19,692 nt of DNA from a virus (Duplodnaviria > Heunggongvirae > Uroviricota > Caudoviricetes), in the IMG/VR virus record IMGVR_UViG_2778261637_000010, positions 1 through 19,692 of that record; one strand, 5' to 3'. Numbering within the stretch: position 1 is the first letter of the stretch; each line of letters begins with the position of its first letter. The notes beneath the pieces are model-generated. The model was not told the origin of the DNA. It did no database searches and saw nothing but the letters and a program-made list of their open reading frames with translations. Made by a program: the position numbers and the translations under genes. Positions 5,902-16,510 of the stretch are shown here, piece by piece.

Positions 5902-7196
5902 TGGCATTAAATGAAGGTCAACTGGTCACGTATGCTCTGGATGAAATCATCGAAACCGTCCAGAACCTGACGCCAATGGCGTCCAAAGTGACAAAATACA
6001 CCCCTCCGGCAGAATCCATGCAGCGTTCAAGCAACACCGTGTGGATGCCTGTTGAGCAGGAAGCGCCAACGCAGACTGGCTGGGATTTAACTGGCAACGC
6101 AACTGGGATTCTGGAGCTGTCCGTGAAATGCAACATGGGCGATCCGGATAACGATTTCTTCGAGCTTCGTGCAGATGACCTGCGTGATGAGCGTTCTTAC
6201 CGTCGCCGCATCCAGGCATCCGCCAAAAAACTGGCGAATAACATTGAGTCAGCAATTGCCAAACAGGCAACCGAAATGGGCTCACTTGTTGTTCACGATA
6301 CCCGCGCAATTGGTCCATCTACTGGCCTGTCTGGCTGGGATTTTGTGTCTGATGCAGAGCGCCTGATGTTCTCCCGTGAGCTAAACCGCGATATGGGCAT
6401 CAGTTACTTCCTGAACCCTGACGATTACCGCAAAGCAGGCCGCAACCTGGTAGATGGTGACATCTTCGGGCGCGTTCCTGAAGAAGCGTATCGCAACGGT
6501 ACTATTCAGCGTCAGATTGCTGGCTTTGATGAAATTCTTCGCTCACCGAAACTTCCGGCAGTTACCAAGTCAACCGCGACTGGTGTAACTGTTTCTGGTG
6601 CGCAGAAGTTTAAGCCGCAGGCATACACCCTTGATACCGATGGTAACAAAGAGAACGTCGACAACCGTGTTGCAACGGTGACCGTATCCTCCACCACCGG
6701 GTTTAAGCGCGGCGACAAAATCAGCTTCACTGGTGTGAAATTCCTGTCTCAGATGGCGAAGAACGTGCTGACTGATGATGCTACTTTCTCAATCACCCGT
6801 GTGATCGATGGTACTCACATCGAAATCACGCCGAAGCCGATTGCGCTTGATGACTCTTCACTGACAAAAGAAGAGAAGGCTTACGCTAACGTAAACACCT
6901 CTCTTGCTGATTCCACTCCGGTAAACGTTCTGAACGTGGAAACAACCACCGCTAACGTGTTTTGGGCTGATGACTCAATCCGTCTGCTGTCTCAGCCGAT
7001 CCCGGTAACCCATGAACTGTTTGCTGGCATGAAAACTTCTTCCTTCAGCATTCCTGGCATTGGTGTTAACGGCATCTTCGCAACGCAGGGTGATATCAAC
7101 ACTCTGTCTGGTAAGTGCCGTATTGCTGTGTGGTATTCAGCATGTGCTGTACGACCAGAGGCAATTGGTGTTGGTCTGCCTAACCAGACCGCGTGA
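5901..7196 (+). CDS. 5: Major coat protein (P22 gp5-like), 431 aa
   Basis: 431-aa ORF starting [20 protein letters not shown], ending GLPNQTA; length and sequence match P22 coat as recalled; followed by a strong intrinsic terminator. Confidence 0.9.
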
Positions 7197-11277: not shown

Positions 11278-12690
11278 ATGGCTACTTGGCAACAAGGAAT
11301 CAACTCAGGCGGCTTTCTTGCCGGTATCGGTGGGCAAAACTCAAATGCGCCAAAGGCAAGTGATGTAAGTGAGGCGTTGGCCTATATTCGCCAGAACAAC
11401 GAAATGGAGCGTTCAGGTCGCAATAACATCGGCCTTCAGGCGTTGCAGGGACTTGGTAGTGTCGCTCAAACATATCAAGCTGCAAAGCAACAGGAAGCGG
11501 ATGCTGCATTCCAAAAAGAATATGCGGCAGCCATCCAGTCCGGTGATCGACAGCAGGTTCGAGATCTGATGACCAAATATCCTGGTCAATTAGAGAAGAT
11601 TCAGTCTGGTATGAAGTGGGCAGACGAAGACCAGCGCAATTCTATCGGCACCTTAGCGGCTGGCGCACGCCTTGCGTCATCGTCTCCAGAAGCAATGCAA
11701 TCATGGCTGCAAAACAACGCCAAGGAACTGACTCGCGTCGGTGTTGACCCTAACAGCGTTGCTCAGATGTATCAGCAGAACCCTTCAGGATTTGGTGAGT
11801 TTGTTGATCACCTTGGGATGGCTGCGCTTGGTCCGATTGACTACTTCAATGTTCAGGACAAGATGGCTGGTCGTGAGATTGACCGAGGCAGGCTGGCAGA
11901 GACAATCCGCAGCAATCAGGCTGGTGAAGCACTTCAGGCGAGAGGGCAAAACCTTTCCTATCAGTCAGCAATGACTGGGCACAATATCGCAGCACAACGC
12001 TTGGCTCTGGATCAGCAAGAGTTCGGGTTTAAGATGCAGCAAGCGCAGGAAAAGGCTCAGCAGTTGATTAGCGAAGCACCTAAGCTGTCAGTAAACATGG
12101 AAAAAGGCATCGAGACGGCTGTAAACAATGCTACAGCATCATCAAACTCAGCCAATTCTATGAGTGCGCTTGCTCAACAGTTCAGAGCAGAAAAACCAAC
12201 GACAGGTTTGTTCGGTAACGCACAGAACATGTTCGCAAAACTTACCGGAAGCGATACAACATTGCGTGATTTGCGCATTCGCCAAAATGCCCTTGTTAAC
12301 AGTCAGGTTCTTAAATTCCTACCTCCCGGCCCAGCAACGGATAAAGACGTTGAGATCGTTCGACAGGGTGCGCCAACTGACATGGATAACCCTGAGACGG
12401 TCGCAAGATGGCTTGATGCAATGGCAAACCTTGAGCGACGAAACGCGCAGTTTAATGAGTTTAAAGCCGAGTGGATGAGCGCGAATGGCAACCCTGGACA
12501 ATCGCGTAATGGCGGTCAGATATTGGGGTTGGATGTTAAAAAAGGTGAATCATTGGGGAGTGCCGTTAAGCGGTATATGTCATTGAATACTGACGCAGCG
12601 CCAGCACAAGATTCGACACCTTCAGGAGAACCACGGAATCAGGTTGGATCATATACCTCAAAATCAGGCATTCAATTTACGGTGGAATGA
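11278..12690 (+). CDS. 20: Ejection (E) protein gp20-like, 470 aa
   Basis: 470 aa (P22 gp20 is 471 as recalled); ATG at 11278 after AAGGTGGGAA; synteny. Confidence 0.75.
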   Translation: MATWQQGINSGGFLAGIGGQNSNAPKASDVSEALAYIRQNNEMERSGRNNIGLQALQGLGSVAQTYQAAKQQEADAAFQKEYAAAIQSGDRQQVRDLMTKYPGQLEKIQSGMKWADEDQRNSIGTLAAGARLASSSPEAMQSWLQNNAKELTRVGVDPNSVAQMYQQNPSGFGEFVDHLGMAALGPIDYFNVQDKMAGREIDRGRLAETIRSNQAGEALQARGQNLSYQSAMTGHNIAAQRLALDQQEFGFKMQQAQEKAQQLISEAPKLSVNMEKGIETAVNNATASSNSANSMSALAQQFRAEKPTTGLFGNAQNMFAKLTGSDTTLRDLRIRQNALVNSQVLKFLPPGPATDKDVEIVRQGAPTDMDNPETVARWLDAMANLERRNAQFNEFKAEWMSANGNPGQSRNGGQILGLDVKKGESLGSAVKRYMSLNTDAAPAQDSTPSGEPRNQVGSYTSKSGIQFTVE

Positions 12691-14693
12691 TGAAAGTTAC
12701 TGCAAACGGTAAGACATTTACCTTTCCTGATGGTACGAGCACCGAAGATATTGGCACCGCCATTGATGAGTATTTTGCTGGTCAGTCAGCACCAACACAA
12801 CAAGGTGTGCAGCAATCGCCAGCAGACAACTCACTTGCATCAGGATATGCACAGCTTGCCACTCAGCAGAAGGAAGGACTAGATCGCTCTGCTGAGCAAG
12901 GGGCTGTTTTAGGTGCTGCAATGCGCGATGCCGTTACCGGTGAAAGCCGAATGACACCAGAAATGGAGAGACTGCAAAATGTTGGGTCTGCTCCAGAGCT
13001 TAATAGCTTAAGCACTGATGCGCTGCGTGCTGGATTGGGACAGCTATTTGGTTCCGACGCTTCACAGGAGAAAATACTGCAAAGTATTGGCGGGAAAATC
13101 CGGAAGGATGAGAAGGGAAATTCCATCGTCACCCTTCCTTCAGGGGAATATGCACTTAACAAGCCTGGTTTGTCACCGCAGGATATAACGTCATTCTTGG
13201 CAAATGCTCTTGCATTCACTCCAGCAGGTAGAGCTGCGTCTGTTGTAGGTGCAACACTAAAATCAGGCGCTACTGATTTAGCTTTACAGGGTGCCACTAA
13301 GATCGCTGGCGGTGAGAATGTTAATCCAGTTCAAACTGCAATTTCTGCTGGTCTTGGTGGGGTACTGAAGGGTGTAGAAAACACCGCAAGCGCAGTGTCT
13401 CGTTCTGCTATGGGTAAGATTGCTCCTGAAAAACAAGCTCAGATTGACTTTGCCAAGCAGAACAACTTGCCACTGATGACAACAGATCTTGTGGAACCGG
13501 GAACGAATATTGGTAAGCAAGCACGAGCTATGGCTGAGCGAATCCCAATAGCCGGAACAGGTGGGATAAGAAATGCACAGCAAAAGGCCAGGGAAGATTT
13601 AGTTAGAACATTTAGCGATAATGTTGGTGGAATATCTGACGCACAACTTTACCAATCAGCTACTCGTGGTCAGCAGCAATTTATTCAGGCTGCTGGCAAG
13701 CGGTACGACAGGATCATCAGTTTGATGGGGGATACTCCTGTTGACATCACTGGAACAGTGAAAGCAATTGATGAGCAGATTTCCAAGTTAACTCGCCCAG
13801 GAGTATCGCAAGACCGCTCAGCTGTTTCTGTCCTTCAACAGTTTAGAAATGACATCACCAGCGGTCCAAATAACCTGCAATTAGCTAGAGAAAACCGTAC
13901 AAACTTACGTAAGCGCTTTATGGCAGCACCTGACGAGGTCGATAGAGATACGCTGGAGAAAGCTGCGCAGTCTGTTTATAACGCATACACAACAGACATG
14001 AAAAAAGCGGTTGGCGCAAAACTAGGTGCGAAGGAAGCGCAAAACATGTCGCGTGTTGATCGTTCTTGGGCAAAGTTCAACGACATGATGAGCAATACAC
14101 GTGTCCAAAAAGCTATTCAGAGTGGTAAAACAACGCCAGAAGATGTCACTAAACTAGTATTCAGCCAAAGCCCAGCGGAAAGGGCGCAACTTTATCGATT
14201 GCTTGATGATAGTGGGCGTCAAAATGCTAGAGCAGCACTTGTTCAGCGTGCAATGGATAAGGCGACAAGCGATTCAGGAAAGCTTAGCGTTGAGAAGTTT
14301 ATTAATGAAATGAAAAGGAATCGGAAGCAGGCTGAGACGTTCTTCAGAGGAGAGCATGGGAAACAGCTTGATGGGATAATGAAATATCTTGATTCCACTA
14401 GACAGGCAGCTACTGCTGCCGCAAGCCCACTAACAGGGCAAATGGTAGCTGGTCCAGCAGCGCTGATAACAGCTCTTGCGTCTGTTACAAATCCAATGTT
14501 TGCAAAAGTTGCGGCAGTTGGAGCTGGTATCGGTATGGCTGGCAGGGGCTATGAGTCACGCGCGATGAGGAACGCATTACTAAAGTTAGCAAACACGCCA
14601 AAAGGAAGTACTGCTTATGATAGAGCGATCAGACGGGTATCTGAAACTCTTACACCTCTAATTCAGGCTTCAAGTGAGAAAGCCCAGCAGTAA
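12687..14693 (+). CDS. 16: Ejection (E) protein gp16-like, 668 aa
   Basis: ATGA overlap with gp20 stop; last gene of the rightward late block before the strand switch; synteny with P22 gene 16 but about 60 aa longer than I recall for P22 (609 aa). Confidence 0.75.
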   Translation: MMKVTANGKTFTFPDGTSTEDIGTAIDEYFAGQSAPTQQGVQQSPADNSLASGYAQLATQQKEGLDRSAEQGAVLGAAMRDAVTGESRMTPEMERLQNVGSAPELNSLSTDALRAGLGQLFGSDASQEKILQSIGGKIRKDEKGNSIVTLPSGEYALNKPGLSPQDITSFLANALAFTPAGRAASVVGATLKSGATDLALQGATKIAGGENVNPVQTAISAGLGGVLKGVENTASAVSRSAMGKIAPEKQAQIDFAKQNNLPLMTTDLVEPGTNIGKQARAMAERIPIAGTGGIRNAQQKAREDLVRTFSDNVGGISDAQLYQSATRGQQQFIQAAGKRYDRIISLMGDTPVDITGTVKAIDEQISKLTRPGVSQDRSAVSVLQQFRNDITSGPNNLQLARENRTNLRKRFMAAPDEVDRDTLEKAAQSVYNAYTTDMKKAVGAKLGAKEAQNMSRVDRSWAKFNDMMSNTRVQKAIQSGKTTPEDVTKLVFSQSPAERAQLYRLLDDSGRQNARAALVQRAMDKATSDSGKLSVEKFINEMKRNRKQAETFFRGEHGKQLDGIMKYLDSTRQAATAAASPLTGQMVAGPAALITALASVTNPMFAKVAAVGAGIGMAGRGYESRAMRNALLKLANTPKGSTAYDRAIRRVSETLTPLIQASSEKAQQ

Positions 14694-14701
14694 AAAGTTG
14701 G

Positions 14702-15022
14702 TTAGCGGTTGATGGTTGCTTTTTTCGGGTCATACCATCTCGGCCATTCTTTCAGGAATGGGAATGAGTCGGGAGCGTGGTTCTTTTTGTACGATTTAAG
14801 CAGCCTTAACCGCTCAATCGCACACTCATAAACCTCTTGTTGCCCTGTAGTCATCTCGGTCCATGAAAGGTGATCCATTGATAAGACAACGTTTTCAGCT
14901 TCTTTTATGAGGGCGTTTTTATTTCTCACCGCAGCAGCATGGCTGACAGAGCAATCCTGCCATATTCTTAAAAGCCAAATAGCTAAGCAGATGAAAAAAA
15001 TGGTAGAGAGCGATATGTACAT
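14702..15022 (-). CDS. Hypothetical signal-anchored small membrane protein, 106 aa (accessory cassette gene 3)
   Basis: ATG at 15022 with AAGGAG 6 nt upstream; N-terminal hydrophobic helix (ISLSTIFFICLAIWLLRIW) then soluble domain; stop 8 nt from the convergent gp16 stop; AT-rich. Confidence 0.55.
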   Translation of the reverse strand: MYISLSTIFFICLAIWLLRIWQDCSVSHAAAVRNKNALIKEAENVVLSMDHLSWTEMTTGQQEVYECAIERLRLLKSYKKNHAPDSFPFLKEWPRWYDPKKATINR

Positions 15023-15046
15023 GCCGATCTCCTTAGATTTATCAAT

Positions 15047-15081
15047 GCTGCATGATTTTCAACAGACATCAATCATGCAGC
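15047..15081. promoter_or_regulatory. 11-bp perfect inverted repeat GCTGCATGATT-N13-AATCATGCAGC upstream of the 106-aa ORF
   Basis: Read directly; lies in the 80-bp intergenic gap just upstream (on the minus strand) of the AAGGAG RBS of the 106-aa ORF. Confidence 0.4.
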
Positions 15082-15102
15082 TATAGGTAATAAATCAAGA
15101 AA

Positions 15103-15615
15103 CTATTGAGAACGTTTGTCTTTTTGAGACTCTAATATAGCCAATACCTTATAAAGAGATTGGTTTGTTGAGTCTAATTTTTGATCAGTGTTATCAATCC
15201 TTGACTGTAATACTGATTGGTTGTTTTGGATAGTAGCCATTATCTCTGCCTTACTGGTTTGGATGTTTCCTGTTAGCTCTTGTCGTGATGATTCAACTTT
15301 TTCATCTATAGTGCCTCGAATCGTCCATGTGGCGGCAACGATAGAACCAATGATAGCAACTGCAACCCCGTATAGCTCTAAACGTTTCACGGTATCACGA
15401 CCTTCTTCTTTGTGTTGCTCTTCTTGTAGGCTAAATATTTGTGGTTCCTTTGACGGATTTCTGCCAGTTGGTCTGTAATACTCTGAATATTTAGCGTTTT
15501 CTATTGAACTCCATAACGATTTGTCAAAGTCAAGGTTTTCATGTTGGCTTTGAGCATCTCCATAAATACTAGGTGATTTATTGTGAACATGTTGGTCAAA
15601 CATTATCTCCATCAC
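15103..15615 (-). CDS. Hypothetical single-pass membrane protein with C-terminal coiled-coil-like domain, about 167-170 aa (accessory cassette gene 2)
   Basis: Track ORF starts at GTG 15615; in-frame ATGs at 15612 and 15603 are alternative starts. One predicted TM helix (LELYGVAVAIIGSIVAATWTI, residues about 79-99) preceded by basic residues; C-terminal about 70 aa Q/N/S/T-rich with heptad-like spacing. 5' end overlaps the 3' end of the upstream ORF. Confidence 0.55.
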   Translation of the reverse strand: MMEIMFDQHVHNKSPSIYGDAQSQHENLDFDKSLWSSIENAKYSEYYRPTGRNPSKEPQIFSLQEEQHKEEGRDTVKRLELYGVAVAIIGSIVAATWTIRGTIDEKVESSRQELTGNIQTSKAEIMATIQNNQSVLQSRIDNTDQKLDSTNQSLYKVLAILESQKDKRSQ

Positions 15616-15943
15616 CCTTTACGAATTTTCCAGAAGAGATATTTTCACTAACTTTGTTTAAACTAAAAAAGTGGAAGAAACCGCAAGTGGTGCATTGCAT
15701 GGCTACCATGTTAAGACTATCGTTGCTATAAGTATCTTGATTAACAGGATTATTAGGCAAGCTTTTACCTGGTATGGATGGTCCTATAACTTCAACACCA
15801 TCATCTTTTTTAAGATGCTCCGGTGCTAAAAGAGTCCAGTTTGTATTGCTGCATATTGGGCATACATAAGTTTTTTTGAATGAAGTCAGGTAATTACTAA
15901 AAGACTCAAAAGTAACTTTTAAGTATTGCTCCTTACTGCTCAT
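15596..15943 (-). CDS. Hypothetical CxxC...CxxC (zinc-ribbon-like) protein, 115 aa (accessory cassette gene 1)
   Basis: ATG at 15943 overlaps the mnt stop (TAATG); motifs CPIC and CTTC about 55 residues apart; AT-rich coding sequence. Confidence 0.55.
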   Translation of the reverse strand: MSSKEQYLKVTFESFSNYLTSFKKTYVCPICSNTNWTLLAPEHLKKDDGVEVIGPSIPGKSLPNNPVNQDTYSNDSLNMVAMQCTTCGFFHFFSLNKVSENISSGKFVKGDGDNV

Positions 15944-16182
15944 TATTGGCCTCGAATCTTCTTAAGTACGCTAATTGCAATATCCATTGCTTCCTTCTCT
16001 GTTTTTGTGAGATCTTGAGATGTCGATGGTATGACCTTTTCTCTGTTAATCTTAATCCATAGCTGTATTGCAGCTATGATTTCAGCATTGATAGAGCGCC
16101 TGTTTGTTGCCGCAATGTGAGTAAGCTGCTGCTTGATTTCACTTGGCATTCTTACGTTAAATTGTGGATCGTTTCTAGCCAC
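15943..16182 (-). CDS. mnt: Mnt-like ribbon-helix-helix repressor, 79 aa, GTG start
   Basis: N-terminus MARNDPQFNVRMPSEIKQQL closely resembles P22 Mnt N-terminus (MARDDPHFNFRMP...) as recalled; GTG at 16182 with AGGAG 6 nt upstream; divergent from arc as in P22 immI. Confidence 0.75.
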   Translation of the reverse strand: MARNDPQFNVRMPSEIKQQLTHIAATNRRSINAEIIAAIQLWIKINREKVIPSTSQDLTKTEKEAMDIAISVLKKIRGQ

Positions 16183-16275
16183 GTCGCTCTCCTGTTATTT
16201 GTTGACATGCTAGAACGGTAGTAGTACGCTTTCAATAGTAGTACGGTGCTATCATTTAATGGAGTGGAGTGGAAT
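16183..16275. promoter_or_regulatory. Divergent mnt/arc-ant control region (Pant and Pmnt with operators)
   Basis: Rightward: TTGACA (16202-16207), 17-bp spacer, TACGCT. Leftward (minus strand): TTGAAA-N17-TAGCAT. Direct repeat TAGTAGTACG at 16219-16228 and 16236-16245; imperfect palindrome TAGTACGGTGCTA at 16237-16249. Confidence 0.55.
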
Positions 16276-16437: not shown

Positions 16438-16440
16438 AGT

Positions 16441-16510
16441 TGAAGCCCCAACTGCGGGAACAGTCAGGGCTTCGGTTGTCGGTAAATTCGTGGAGAAAAA
16501 CCAACATGAA
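16441..16510 (-). ncRNA. sar: Candidate sar-like antisense RNA covering the ant ribosome-binding site
   Basis: P22 makes an approximately 69-nt leftward antisense RNA (sar) from within the start of ant, ending in the arc-ant spacer. Here a hairpin (GAAGCCC 16442-16448 / GGGCTTC 16467-16473, inner ACTG/CAGT) sits about 65 nt left of the ant ATG, and the minus strand has TATACT just inside ant. No convincing -35 element or U-run found. Confidence 0.3.

Follow-up and report, generated by a model that had tools for sequence, protein, structure and literature searches.

ORF106, which is found at positions 14702-15022 on the minus strand of the window (the whole stretch of DNA analysed here, 19,692 nucleotides in length), appears in the ORF list as an ATG-initiated gene and encodes a 106-aa protein identical to RefSeq WP_000275950.1. 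It is convergent with a homologue of gene 16, encoding an ejection protein (12687-14693, plus strand). The gp16 TAA, ending at 14693, and the ORF106 TAA (14702-14704) are separated by an 8-nt spacer, AAAGTTGG (14694-14701), in which a consensus scan finds no terminator-like site, in agreement with the initial annotation of this DNA. The absence of a terminator between the two stops is ordinary, because late transcripts of P22-like phages traverse the "ant moron" and reach the tailspike gene (PMC2629481).

The translation initiation region of ORF106 (15023-15035, minus strand) comprises AAGGAG at 15029-15034, or UAAGGAG if position 15035 is counted, and a 6-nt spacer (15023-15028). This is the longest Shine-Dalgarno (SD) match among the four leftward genes of the window, and the earlier description of ORF106 as having the strongest ribosome-binding site (RBS) of the cassette is borne out. 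CTAAGGAG is the sole upstream sequence common to all ORF106 contexts, and the start codon agrees in position with those of homologues, which begin at the same codon (ATG or GTG). ORF106 is a genuine, separately translated gene with a strong SD of its own. A 59-aa plus-strand ORF (14907-15086) overlaps the start region of ORF106; in the overlap, the frame that is conserved and under selection is that of the minus strand.

The leftward operon begins with a gene for an mnt-like repressor of the Arc family (15943-16182, minus strand; PF03869, E 5e-13), which shares 34-50% identity with Mnt proteins encoded at related loci. It is followed by an independent cargo module of two minus-strand genes, ORF115 (15596-15943), which is zinc-ribbon-like (CxxC ... 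CxxC) and whose ATG overlaps the mnt stop codon (TAATG), and ORF170 (15103-15615), which encodes a membrane and coiled-coil protein. The true start of ORF170 is probably the ATG at 15603, which would give a product of 166 aa; phrog_24865 aligns from residue 5 of ORF170, and the RefSeq annotation is also 166 aa.

The four leftward genes have a single sigma-70-like site upstream of them, a Pmnt-like promoter, TTGAAA-17-TAGCAT (16207-16235, minus strand). A consensus scan, which reaches consensus-like rather than weak or non-consensus promoters, detects no further site of this type from Pmnt to ORF106, and inspection by hand of the 80-bp gap between the ORF170 TAG and the ORF106 ATG (15023-15102) reveals TTGAAA and several weak -10-like hexamers, none with workable spacing. 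Co-transcription from Pmnt is thus the simpler reading. ORF106 would most likely be the fourth cistron of a Pmnt transcript (mnt-ORF115-ORF170-ORF106), expressed in the prophage and translated from its own strong RBS. The claim that ORF106 is separately initiated consequently stands for translation, given its own SD and a start shared with homologues, but is not supported for transcription, as the scan calls no promoter-like site after Pmnt.

Topology, conservation and contexts of ORF106

The ORF106 protein has a single transmembrane helix (YISLSTIFFICLAIWLLRIW; codons 2-21, 14960-15019, minus strand) at its extreme N-terminus, where no charged residue precedes it; a helical domain of approximately 85 residues comes next. 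Residues 2-18 have a mean Kyte-Doolittle value of 2.27 and form the sole such hydrophobic segment in the protein, and in the AF2 model (pLDDT 86) a helix spanning residues 5-48 continues from the transmembrane segment. A charged N-flank is absent in 15 of 15 family members, and the C-flank is net positive in 14 of them; outside the 17-residue best hydrophobic window, none of the 15 has a K or R in the N-flank, though the L009 member (P0018) begins with MK. Application of the positive-inside rule to these 15 members predicts an N-out/C-in protein with a cytoplasmic helical domain. A signal anchor followed by an exported domain had been proposed at first; the N-terminal hydrophobic segment is present, but the charge pattern predicts that the C-terminal domain is cytoplasmic rather than exported. 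By the same rule-based analysis, a periplasm-facing signal anchor is not supported, the n-region being without positive charge and the C-flank mostly net positive. Most family members contain a single Cys in the C-terminal domain.

The profile search suggested in the initial annotation returned a full-length match to phrog_10450 (E 3.2e-52; residues 1-103 against profile positions 1-98 of 98), and a family of homologues at 29-99% identity was recovered by this type of search. The family alignment is full-length, with K35, I39, E41, A42, A68, L72, W93 and P94 invariant. The family is small, with approximately 12 cluster representatives among 1.84 billion. The exact ORF106 protein is found on at least 999 contigs, and the gene is found in 57 of 5426 E. 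coli genomes; in the phage collection only two records carry ORF106 at high identity, and most P22-like phages are without it. Between the window and E. coli K71-77 there are no nonsynonymous changes (pS 0.06), and distant pairs have pN of 0.20-0.25 versus pS of 0.76-0.94, a substitution pattern indicating that the family is under purifying selection. Scans of ORF106 and all 14 family members against Pfam, NCBIfam and PADLOC gave nothing above noise, a sequence-profile search of the PDB gave no match at E <= 1, and a Foldseek search of the PDB and BFVD with the AF2 model gave none at E <= 0.001, returning generic helical hairpins only. All database names for the family are "hypothetical protein." A literature search on the accession numbers and the PHROG identifier found no paper mentioning the family, and papers that name the phage mEp043, which carries a distant member, are silent on that protein, gp49.

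The identical ORF106 protein is found behind at least four different upstream contexts. In the window and in 41 E. coli genomes, ORF170 and a palindrome lie upstream; in K71-77 the upstream gene is divergent and hkcC-like; in UTAK-1, ORF106 follows a 375-bp spacer adjoining a Panacea gene; and in HB37 it follows an HTH gene. Diverged homologues follow mnt directly (L006), a different gene pair (L007) or a Rap1a-like gene (L009). Gene 16 is convergent with ORF106 in the window, K71-77, UTAK-1, HB37, L006, L007 and L009. A further set of subfamily members (mEp043 gp49, P0019 and P0021) is found 4-14 bp downstream of an S24 cI repressor gene, in mEp043, which is a lambda-like siphovirus, and in L011 and L012. 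Like other morons, ORF106 is present or absent among syntenic relatives and exchangeable at its site. By this comparison of contexts, ORF106 is an autonomous cargo gene, inherited independently of the genes upstream of it.

The sieA slot and the possible role of ORF106

The ORF106 slot lies between genes homologous to 16 and 9 of P22, adjoining and convergent with 16. In P22 the corresponding layout is gene 16, 22 nt, sieA and then the annotated sieA promoter, with sieA reading leftward like mnt. In E. coli K71-77, ORF106 takes over from sieA precisely at the GTG start, with the promoter and RBS of P22 sieA lying ahead of it; the 127 nt upstream of this copy of ORF106 are approximately 96% identical to the P22 sieA upstream region, and homology stops at GTG(T). 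In P22, 85 bp of this upstream region are enough for functional single-copy expression of sieA (PMC10883804). The same upstream platform is followed by sieA in approximately 50 phages, by hkcB in HK620 and, in 8 E. coli genomes, by ORF106, and the slot next to gene 16 is therefore an exchangeable one, holding sieA, hkcB or ORF106. No occupant other than SieA has, to our knowledge, been characterised, and how SieA works became clear only in 2024 (Leavitt et al. 2024, PMC10883804). The K71-77, UTAK-1 and HB37 contexts have in common a TATCAT hexamer and a candidate extended -10 (TGGTATCCT); the consensus scanner calls neither.

The replacement of sieA with its promoter, RBS and start codon retained, together with the occurrence of relatives at the rex position, makes ORF106 a candidate exclusion or defence protein, and its genomic position suggests that its role is probably exclusion or defence. 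ORF106 would sit in the inner membrane in the N-out/C-in orientation, with its helical domain in the cytoplasm, and would protect the lysogen against incoming phage. The most likely mechanism would be the hindering of DNA delivery at the inner membrane, as in the case of SieA, by means of an unrelated protein. A point against this reading is that the family, being shared by podoviral and siphoviral prophages, cannot be tuned only to P22-type ejection proteins. Of the functions first offered for ORF106, that of an independent exclusion factor is the one favoured by the comparative data (the sieA slot, the platform and the independence of the gene), with exclusion itself argued from position. 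We give a probability of about one half to this reading as a whole, in which ORF106 is an autonomous cargo gene of the variable ant moron of a P22-like (Lederbergvirus) prophage, located in the sieA slot behind a junction hairpin and protecting the lysogen. A broader and more doubtful proposal is that the family represents a new class of exclusion or defence protein of approximately 100 aa, held in the inner membrane by its N-terminal helix and with its helical domain towards the cytoplasm, used from both the mnt operon of P22-like podophages, where it replaces sieA from the start codon onward, and the cI operon of lambda-like siphophages, and that PsieA-SD-GTG is a site of cassette exchange. 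At such a platform, unrelated small membrane proteins (SieA, HkcB and ORF106) would be swapped, changing the exclusion spectrum.

Protection of the lysogen could also occur after DNA entry, with ORF106 acting as a prophage membrane defence through abortive infection or depolarisation, in the manner of RexB or SieB. Distant members at the rex position downstream of cI are consistent with such a role, the predicted cytoplasmic domain could sense an intracellular phage product, and the family's presence in podoviral as well as siphoviral prophages speaks for a target not restricted to one type of virion. However, a lone transmembrane helix forms channels poorly unless oligomerised, ORF106 is found without a partner gene whereas RexB works with RexA, there is no PADLOC match for ORF106, and the precise exchange of sieA for ORF106 under one promoter points to entry exclusion as the niche. 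A post-entry defence is consequently unlikely.

We also consider it unlikely that ORF106 is a lysogenic-conversion or housekeeping gene unrelated to phage defence, for example one whose product modulates, from the cytoplasmic side, a host stress pathway or an inner-membrane protease or transporter. The use of two lysogeny operons and the exact replacement of a proven exclusion gene form a classic, albeit circumstantial, signature of superinfection cargo. Against this must be set the many unrelated genes of evidently varied function held by the ant moron (PMC2629481), the lack of similarity between ORF106 and any defence protein, and a conserved helical domain with a Trp/Pro-rich tail that could bind a host membrane protein.

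Prophage exclusion genes shape the phage susceptibility of E. coli and Salmonella, among them the STEC lineages in which this prophage is found, and ORF106 is a concrete and cheaply testable candidate for a new exclusion or defence protein. The same findings point to a defined site of cassettes, in which further such proteins could be sought. If it has no phage phenotype, ORF106 would be an ordinary gene, one more of the variable genes of the ant moron.

The hairpin upstream of ORF106

As the initial annotation reported, the 80-bp gap contains a perfect 11-bp inverted repeat, GCTGCATGATT / AATCATGCAGC (15047-15081), with arms at 15047-15057 and 15071-15081 and a 13-nt loop. Apart from this palindrome, the 19.7-kb window has no perfect inverted repeat of at least 11 bp (loop 3-30). 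When the window is shuffled by mononucleotides, the mean is 0.16 such repeats, with at least one in 12% of shuffles, and an 11-bp repeat in the pre-specified 80-bp gap is well beyond chance. The palindrome forms the core of an extended imperfect RNA hairpin (15027-15103, minus strand) that reaches from the last base of the ORF170 TAG to 2 nt beyond the SD of ORF106, with lower stems rich in AU and GU. Its minimum free energy is -25.9 kcal/mol (z -2.8), equalled by 2 of 200 shuffles. The antisense strand folds at -19.4 kcal/mol and is without the extra G-U pairs of the sense strand, and this asymmetry of 6.5 kcal/mol points to an RNA-level element. In the predicted fold, the SD of ORF106 is mostly paired, with UUUCUU directly after the ORF170 stop codon. 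Since the hairpin base pairs with the RBS, it may tie translation of ORF106 to ribosomes terminating at ORF170. This coupling is speculative, and the idea is weakened because the SD is predicted to pair with the first codons of ORF106 even when the hairpin is removed.

The gap and ORF106 are identical across all 41 E. coli copies and all five IMG/VR copies, so that the hairpin shows no covariation. A search of Rfam with the extended hairpin gave only a sub-threshold match to a generic hairpin. Among public viral contigs, the palindrome is found only within the same module. One unrelated match in a Desulfuromonadaceae genome was taken as chance, and the palindrome was rejected as a dispersed repeat, this locus being the sole match beyond the module. 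The palindrome is missing from every other ORF106 context and travels with the upstream ORF115/ORF170 module. Given this distribution, it is not a conserved regulator of ORF106; the palindromic upstream element first described is a feature of the window, but its assignment to ORF106 is not supported. The palindrome is a local hairpin at the junction of two modules that move independently, rather than a conserved control element.

In lambdoid prophages, the homologues of ORF115/ORF170 carry an intrinsic terminator at the relative position of the palindrome. The hairpin of the window resembles these t_imm-like terminators in beginning 0-4 nt from the stop of the second gene. It differs from them in its AT-rich 11-bp stem, its 13-nt loop and its lack of a U-tract, in failing the terminator scan, and in having a base that overlaps the RBS of the next gene. 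The palindrome itself was rejected as an intrinsic terminator: none is called on either strand, 5 of the 11 stem pairs are G-C, and the tails (sense strand, AUUGAUAAAUCU; antisense strand, UAUAGGUAAUAA) contain no U-tract. In the absence of a U-tract, transcription should continue through the junction hairpin.

The palindrome might instead be a DNA operator or part of a promoter, giving ORF106 its own regulated transcription start. A perfect 11-bp repeat is improbable by chance in an 80-bp gap, the P22 gene in this slot has its own promoter, and a TTGAAA hexamer is located within the loop and 3′ arm. Yet the scan calls no promoter of acceptable spacing, and the half-sites are 24 bp apart, centre to centre. 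Half-site recurrence near Pmnt/Pant or elsewhere is not beyond chance (11 matches elsewhere in the window versus 9.8 expected), and a repressor operator was rejected on this count. With the search settings used, there is no inverted repeat at Pmnt/Pant. Both the absence of the element from all other ORF106 contexts and the sense-only G-U pairs also argue against this reading, and an operator is decidedly improbable.

ORF106 had also been offered as a partner of the upstream pair, or as its immunity or antidote component. The genes are adjacent and co-oriented in the window, and ORF170 and ORF106 both encode membrane proteins. However, at least six contexts have ORF106 but lack the pair, the identical protein is combined with unrelated neighbours, and the homologues of ORF115/ORF170 downstream of cI in lambdoid prophages are followed by a terminator, without ORF106. 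As either can be present in the absence of the other, the two are not partners, and since the identical ORF106 protein also exists where this pair is not upstream, a role as its antidote, immunity protein or structural partner is very unlikely. It is equally hard to credit that ORF106 acts with gene 16 in the infection cycle of the phage itself, for example as an accessory to the ejection protein: it always adjoins gene 16 in P22-like prophages and diverges in parallel with it (gp16 85, 69 and 38% versus ORF106 67, 70-72 and 37%), but tight physical linkage alone predicts such parallel divergence, ORF106 is oriented like mnt and opposite to the late operon, it is absent from most P22-like phages, and members are found in lambda-like siphophages without gene 16.

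Comparison with known systems

ORF106 shares with P22 SieA its genomic slot and orientation, being located between genes 16 and 9, convergent with 16 and downstream of mnt, and in K71-77-type prophages also the GTG start codon, the RBS and the region of the promoter. An inner-membrane location is predicted for both proteins, each with a first helix at the N-terminus followed by a positive, helical, cytoplasmic stretch. The two differ in size (106 aa for ORF106 versus 164 aa in P22, in a SieA family of about 160-200 aa) and in membrane segments, ORF106 having one transmembrane helix and SieA being described with several predicted segments (PMC10883804). ORF106 relatives, in addition, occur in lambda-like siphophages. 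The SieA family has a cytoplasmic motif, FxRYPxEAxxFNK (PMC10883804); no RYP or FNK motif is found in the ORF106 sequence. BLASTP gives no alignment of P22 SieA (type A) with ORF106 at E <= 100, and hhalign with the 14-sequence profile gives a probability of 0.5%. Neither in sequence or profile nor in fold does ORF106 resemble SieA or any solved or viral predicted structure, so that it is from position that an exclusion function is argued.

HkcB of HK620, a homologue of which is present in epsilon34 (PMC2629481), occupies the same slot behind the same upstream platform, with the same GTG start. It is close to ORF106 in size (109 aa) and likewise starts at its N-terminus with a transmembrane helix, after which comes a helical domain of approximately 90 residues. 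The two proteins are without sequence or profile similarity (hhalign probability 0.7%).

The remote ORF106 members located after cI and before PL/N occupy the position of lambda rexA/rexB, as do homologues of ORF115/ORF170. The likeness to RexA/RexB is one of position only, ORF106 being a single small protein and not a two-component system.

A further precedent is HK97 gp15, a small, moron-encoded inner-membrane protein that is expressed from the prophage, reportedly faces the periplasm and blocks DNA entry. Going by this general description, ORF106 would be a protein of a similar kind, although it is predicted to face the cytoplasm instead.

A conserved membrane protein gene convergent with gene 16

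The stretch from 14600 to 16250 is approximately 99.6% identical to Escherichia phages N7 and HZ41 (Lederbergvirus, P22-like). Homologs of gene 20 (11278-12690, +) and gene 16 (12687-14693, +) are followed on the opposite strand by ORF106 (14702-15022, −), ORF170 (15103-15615, −), ORF115 (15596-15943, −), and an mnt-like Arc-family repressor gene (15943-16182, −), beyond which lie arc, ant, and the tailspike gene (+). An Rfam match (94 bits) to the P22 sar antisense RNA at 16438-16505 (−) indicates a canonical immunity-I region. In 2008 the interval between genes 16 and 9 in P22-like phages was characterized as the hyper-variable "ant moron"; its genes differ from phage to phage and are mostly unknown, and it is crossed by the late transcripts that reach the tailspike gene, gene 9 (PMC2629481). 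Since these transcripts must reach gene 9, it is normal here that no terminator-like site was called in the 8 nt separating the gp16 and ORF106 stop codons.

The gp16 homolog comprises 668 aa versus 609 aa in P22 and clearly resembles P22 gp16 only in its first 34 residues (85%), the remainder showing roughly 12–41% identity per alignment block; its C-terminal region is of a different type. The P22 mutations that escape SieA map to the gp16 C-terminal region. ORF106 and the neighboring gp16 diverge in parallel across P22-like prophages, and tight linkage is a sufficient explanation. The best PHROG matches of the mnt-like gene (phrog_2685 and phrog_795) are labelled "partition protein ATPase," as is mnt in the RefSeq records of P22 and phage Emek, a label that has evidently spread by misannotation, the protein being an Arc/Mnt ribbon-helix-helix repressor.

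ORF106 aligns along its entire length with phrog_10450 (unknown function; E = 3e-52) and matches nothing in Pfam, NCBIfam, or PADLOC, and it is named "hypothetical" in every source. The exact protein, RefSeq WP_000275950.1, is found on at least 999 contigs of E. coli and Salmonella, and Morganella also carries family members. A search of 5.8 billion proteins returned 14 relatives down to 65% identity, and 1.84 billion cluster representatives, searched exhaustively by profile, gave 13 matches, one of them a spurious eukaryotic repeat protein, so the family is small. Fourteen sequences, with identity down to 29%, align end to end, and K35, I39, E41, A42, A68, L72, W93, and P94 are invariant in all of them. 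Every difference between the window gene and ORF106 of the E. coli K71-77 prophage is synonymous (pN 0, pS 0.06), and distant pairs show pN of 0.20–0.25 with pS saturated at 0.76–0.94; ORF106 is under purifying selection. A remote member of 114 aa (P0017, locus L008, 5975-6319) neighbors P22 gp7-like and truncated gp20-like genes as well as T6SS Hcp and Tlde1 genes, in what appears to be a rearranged or decayed P22-like prophage remnant.

The sequence-level statements of the initial annotation were all correct, and its interpretation was partly right. The ORF106 start codon, ATG at 15022-15020, follows a UAAGGAG ribosome binding site (15029-15035) after a 6-nt spacer, and its Shine-Dalgarno (SD) match is the longest among the four leftward genes. 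Comparison confirms this start, as the gene begins at the same position in other contexts, with GTG behind TAAGGAGGT.

An AlphaFold2 model run on a 6-sequence alignment (mean pLDDT 86) predicts a continuous helix over residues 5–48, in which the membrane anchor runs into a long helix, a second helix at 59–77, and a conserved KKNHAP...WP.W tail; no meaningful match was found among solved or predicted viral structures. A single strongly hydrophobic segment occupies residues 1–19 in all 15 members examined. The N-flank outside the best hydrophobic window holds a charged residue in none of the 15 (one member begins MK), and the 15 residues after the segment are net positive in 14. Under the positive-inside rule these flanks predict an N-out/C-in anchor, so that the 85-residue domain, proposed earlier to be exported, should be cytoplasmic. 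The C-terminal domain contains a single cysteine in 10 of the 15 members.

Independence from the upstream module

The identical ORF106 protein is found behind four different upstream neighbors. In 41 of 5426 complete E. coli genomes, as in the window, ORF170 and the palindrome precede it, and identity in these 41 is 99% or higher; in K71-77 the neighbor is a divergent hkcC-like HExxH gene with the sieA promoter region, in UTAK-1 a 375-bp spacer next to a Panacea-domain gene, and in HB37 an HTH-domain gene. Diverged homologs are preceded by mnt alone (locus L006), a different two-gene set (L007), or a Rap1a-like gene (L009, Morganella), with gene 16 convergent in each. ORF115 and ORF170 have homologs (34% and 40–45% identity) in lambdoid prophages, where an overlapping pair of 125 and 155–161 aa lies directly downstream of cI and is followed by a canonical intrinsic terminator and then PL/N; no ORF106 relative was found at these cI loci. 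ORF106 and the pair each exist without the other, which contradicts the suggestion that ORF106 is a partner or antidote of the upstream genes.

The pair itself looks like an uncharacterized two-gene system at the rexAB position. ORF115 overlaps both mnt (TAATG) and ORF170. The former encodes a CxxC...CxxC zinc-ribbon-like protein and the latter a central transmembrane helix and coiled coil (15103-15943, −; comparison loci L020–L025), and neither matched in PADLOC or Pfam. The ORF170 start is ambiguous (15596-15615, −) among GTG 15615, ATG 15612, used in the N7 GenBank record, and ATG 15603, which gives 166 aa, is favored by the PHROG profile and RefSeq, and overlaps the ORF115 stop as ATGTTTGA.

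The 80-bp gap between the ORF170 TAG and ORF106 contains the only perfect inverted repeat of at least 11 bp in the window (shuffled windows average 0.16), GCTGCATGATT at 15047-15057 pairing without mismatch with 15071-15081 across a 13-nt loop. It had been taken for an upstream element of ORF106, a role at odds with the gene's other contexts, all of which lack it upstream; public viral and genomic collections contain it only within this module, and its half-site does not recur beyond chance. In the sense RNA the repeat tops a longer hairpin (15027-15103), which begins with the final nucleotide of the ORF170 TAG and pairs the UUUCUU directly after that stop with the ORF106 AAGGAG, and GAUUUAUUA with UGAUAAAUC. 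This hairpin has an MFE of −25.9 kcal/mol (z = −2.8), a stability attained by 2 of 200 shuffled sequences; no Rfam family matches it above threshold, and its copies show zero sequence variation. Several of its pairs are G-U in the sense RNA only, which leaves the fold of the complementary strand weaker by 6.5 kcal/mol. An intrinsic terminator was rejected, given the AT-rich stem, the 13-nt loop, and the absence of a U-tract; lacking that tract, the hairpin should allow read-through into ORF106. Its position is that of the terminator in the lambdoid ORF115/ORF170 homologs, which begins 1–4 nt after the stop, and we read the palindrome as belonging to the 3′ end of the upstream module and marking the seam between two independently acquired modules. 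With low confidence, the hairpin might stabilize the upstream message or make ORF106 translation depend on ribosomes finishing ORF170; this caution reflects its weak lower stems and the prediction that the ORF106 SD still pairs with the first codons when the hairpin is truncated.

A second, imperfect palindrome (15006-15031; GAGAGCGATATGTAC / GTACATGCCGATCTC, 80% complementary) is centered on the ORF106 start codon and is not conserved in GTG-start contexts. RNA folding places the SD against codons 5–7 through this element, so access to this strong SD may be poorer than the sequence implies.

The description of ORF106 as separately initiated holds for translation, given its own ribosome binding site; for transcription it is unproven. 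The four leftward genes have a single sigma-70-like site upstream, a Pmnt-like TTGAAA-17-TAGCAT (16235-16207), and the P22-type sieA promoter region is missing before the window ORF106, with only CTAAGGAG in common. The simplest model would be a four-gene Pmnt operon with independent translation initiation at ORF106. At L006, one diverged prophage, a G+C-rich hairpin (6441-6461) lies between mnt and the ORF106 homolog, 10 nt before its ribosome binding site. Only the late-operon strand gives it a terminator score, which suggests that it limits late transcription into mnt/tailspike more than mnt-operon read-through.

The sieA site, the cI operon, and possible function

In P22, 22 nt separate gene 16 from the leftward sieA, behind which come its annotated promoter and, some 380 bp further on, the mnt terminator, orf59a, and mnt. 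The DNA preceding the K71-77 copy of ORF106 is approximately 96% identical to that upstream of P22 sieA, including the annotated promoter, the TAAGGAGGT ribosome binding site, and the GTG start, and the two sequences diverge one base past the GTG. A query joining 127 nt of this platform to 120 nt of ORF106 matched about 50 phage records, and the whole query matched 206 E. coli genomes; among the matches listed, platform homology ends at query position 124–134, most often at 130–131, the start codon. Behind the platform, P22 and its relatives carry sieA, HK620 carries hkcB, and eight E. coli genomes carry ORF106. ORF106 is an alternative cassette at the SieA site; membership in the SieA family was rejected, as neither BLASTP nor profile comparison found similarity to P22 SieA. 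With only 85 bp of its P22 upstream region, sieA gives full exclusion from a single chromosomal copy (Leavitt et al., PMC10883804).

In P22, the gap of ~380 bp that separates sieA from the mnt terminator holds an intact opposite-strand ORF divergent from sieA (L013, 2862-3235). This hkcC homolog (121 aa, HExxH motif), whose 5′ end includes the annotated sieA promoter, has no CDS at its position in the P22 RefSeq record. Homologs are also found in K71-77 (L003, 5404-5769, +; RefSeq WP_000757526) and HK620 (L026, 2232-2597).

The remotest ORF106 relatives (mEp043 gp49, P0019, and P0021; 29–37% identity) are found 4–14 bp behind an S24-type cI gene, in the same orientation, and precede PL/N. In lambda, rexAB occupies this position; mEp043, a lambda-like siphovirus, has a tape measure and a Cor gene. 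Family members thus lie in two operons that remain active in a lysogen, that of mnt in P22-like and that of cI in lambda-like phages. Variable ant-moron cargo is already known as a general phenomenon; to our knowledge, no description exists of the ORF106 family, of its replacing sieA exactly at the start codon, or of its presence in both operons.

ORF106 is a real, autonomous, uncharacterized single-pass membrane protein gene at the sieA cassette site of a P22-like prophage, with relatives at the rex position of lambda-like prophages. Placement in two lysogen-on operons is the main, positional ground for proposing prophage expression and a superinfection-related role. Our best guess, from position only, is a prophage-expressed exclusion or defense protein at the cytoplasmic face of the inner membrane, a proposal that is cheap to test. 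We put the probability that it blocks DNA entry at about 0.35. Abortive-infection-type defense would be less likely, and another lysogenic-conversion role about as likely as that.

In HK620, hkcB (L026, 2628-2957) abuts the gene 16 stop with zero gap and sits on the same PsieA-SD-GTG platform as sieA and ORF106, its product being unrelated in sequence to both. Although homology to ORF106 is not detectable, HkcB (109 aa) likewise has an N-terminal transmembrane helix followed by a helical remainder.
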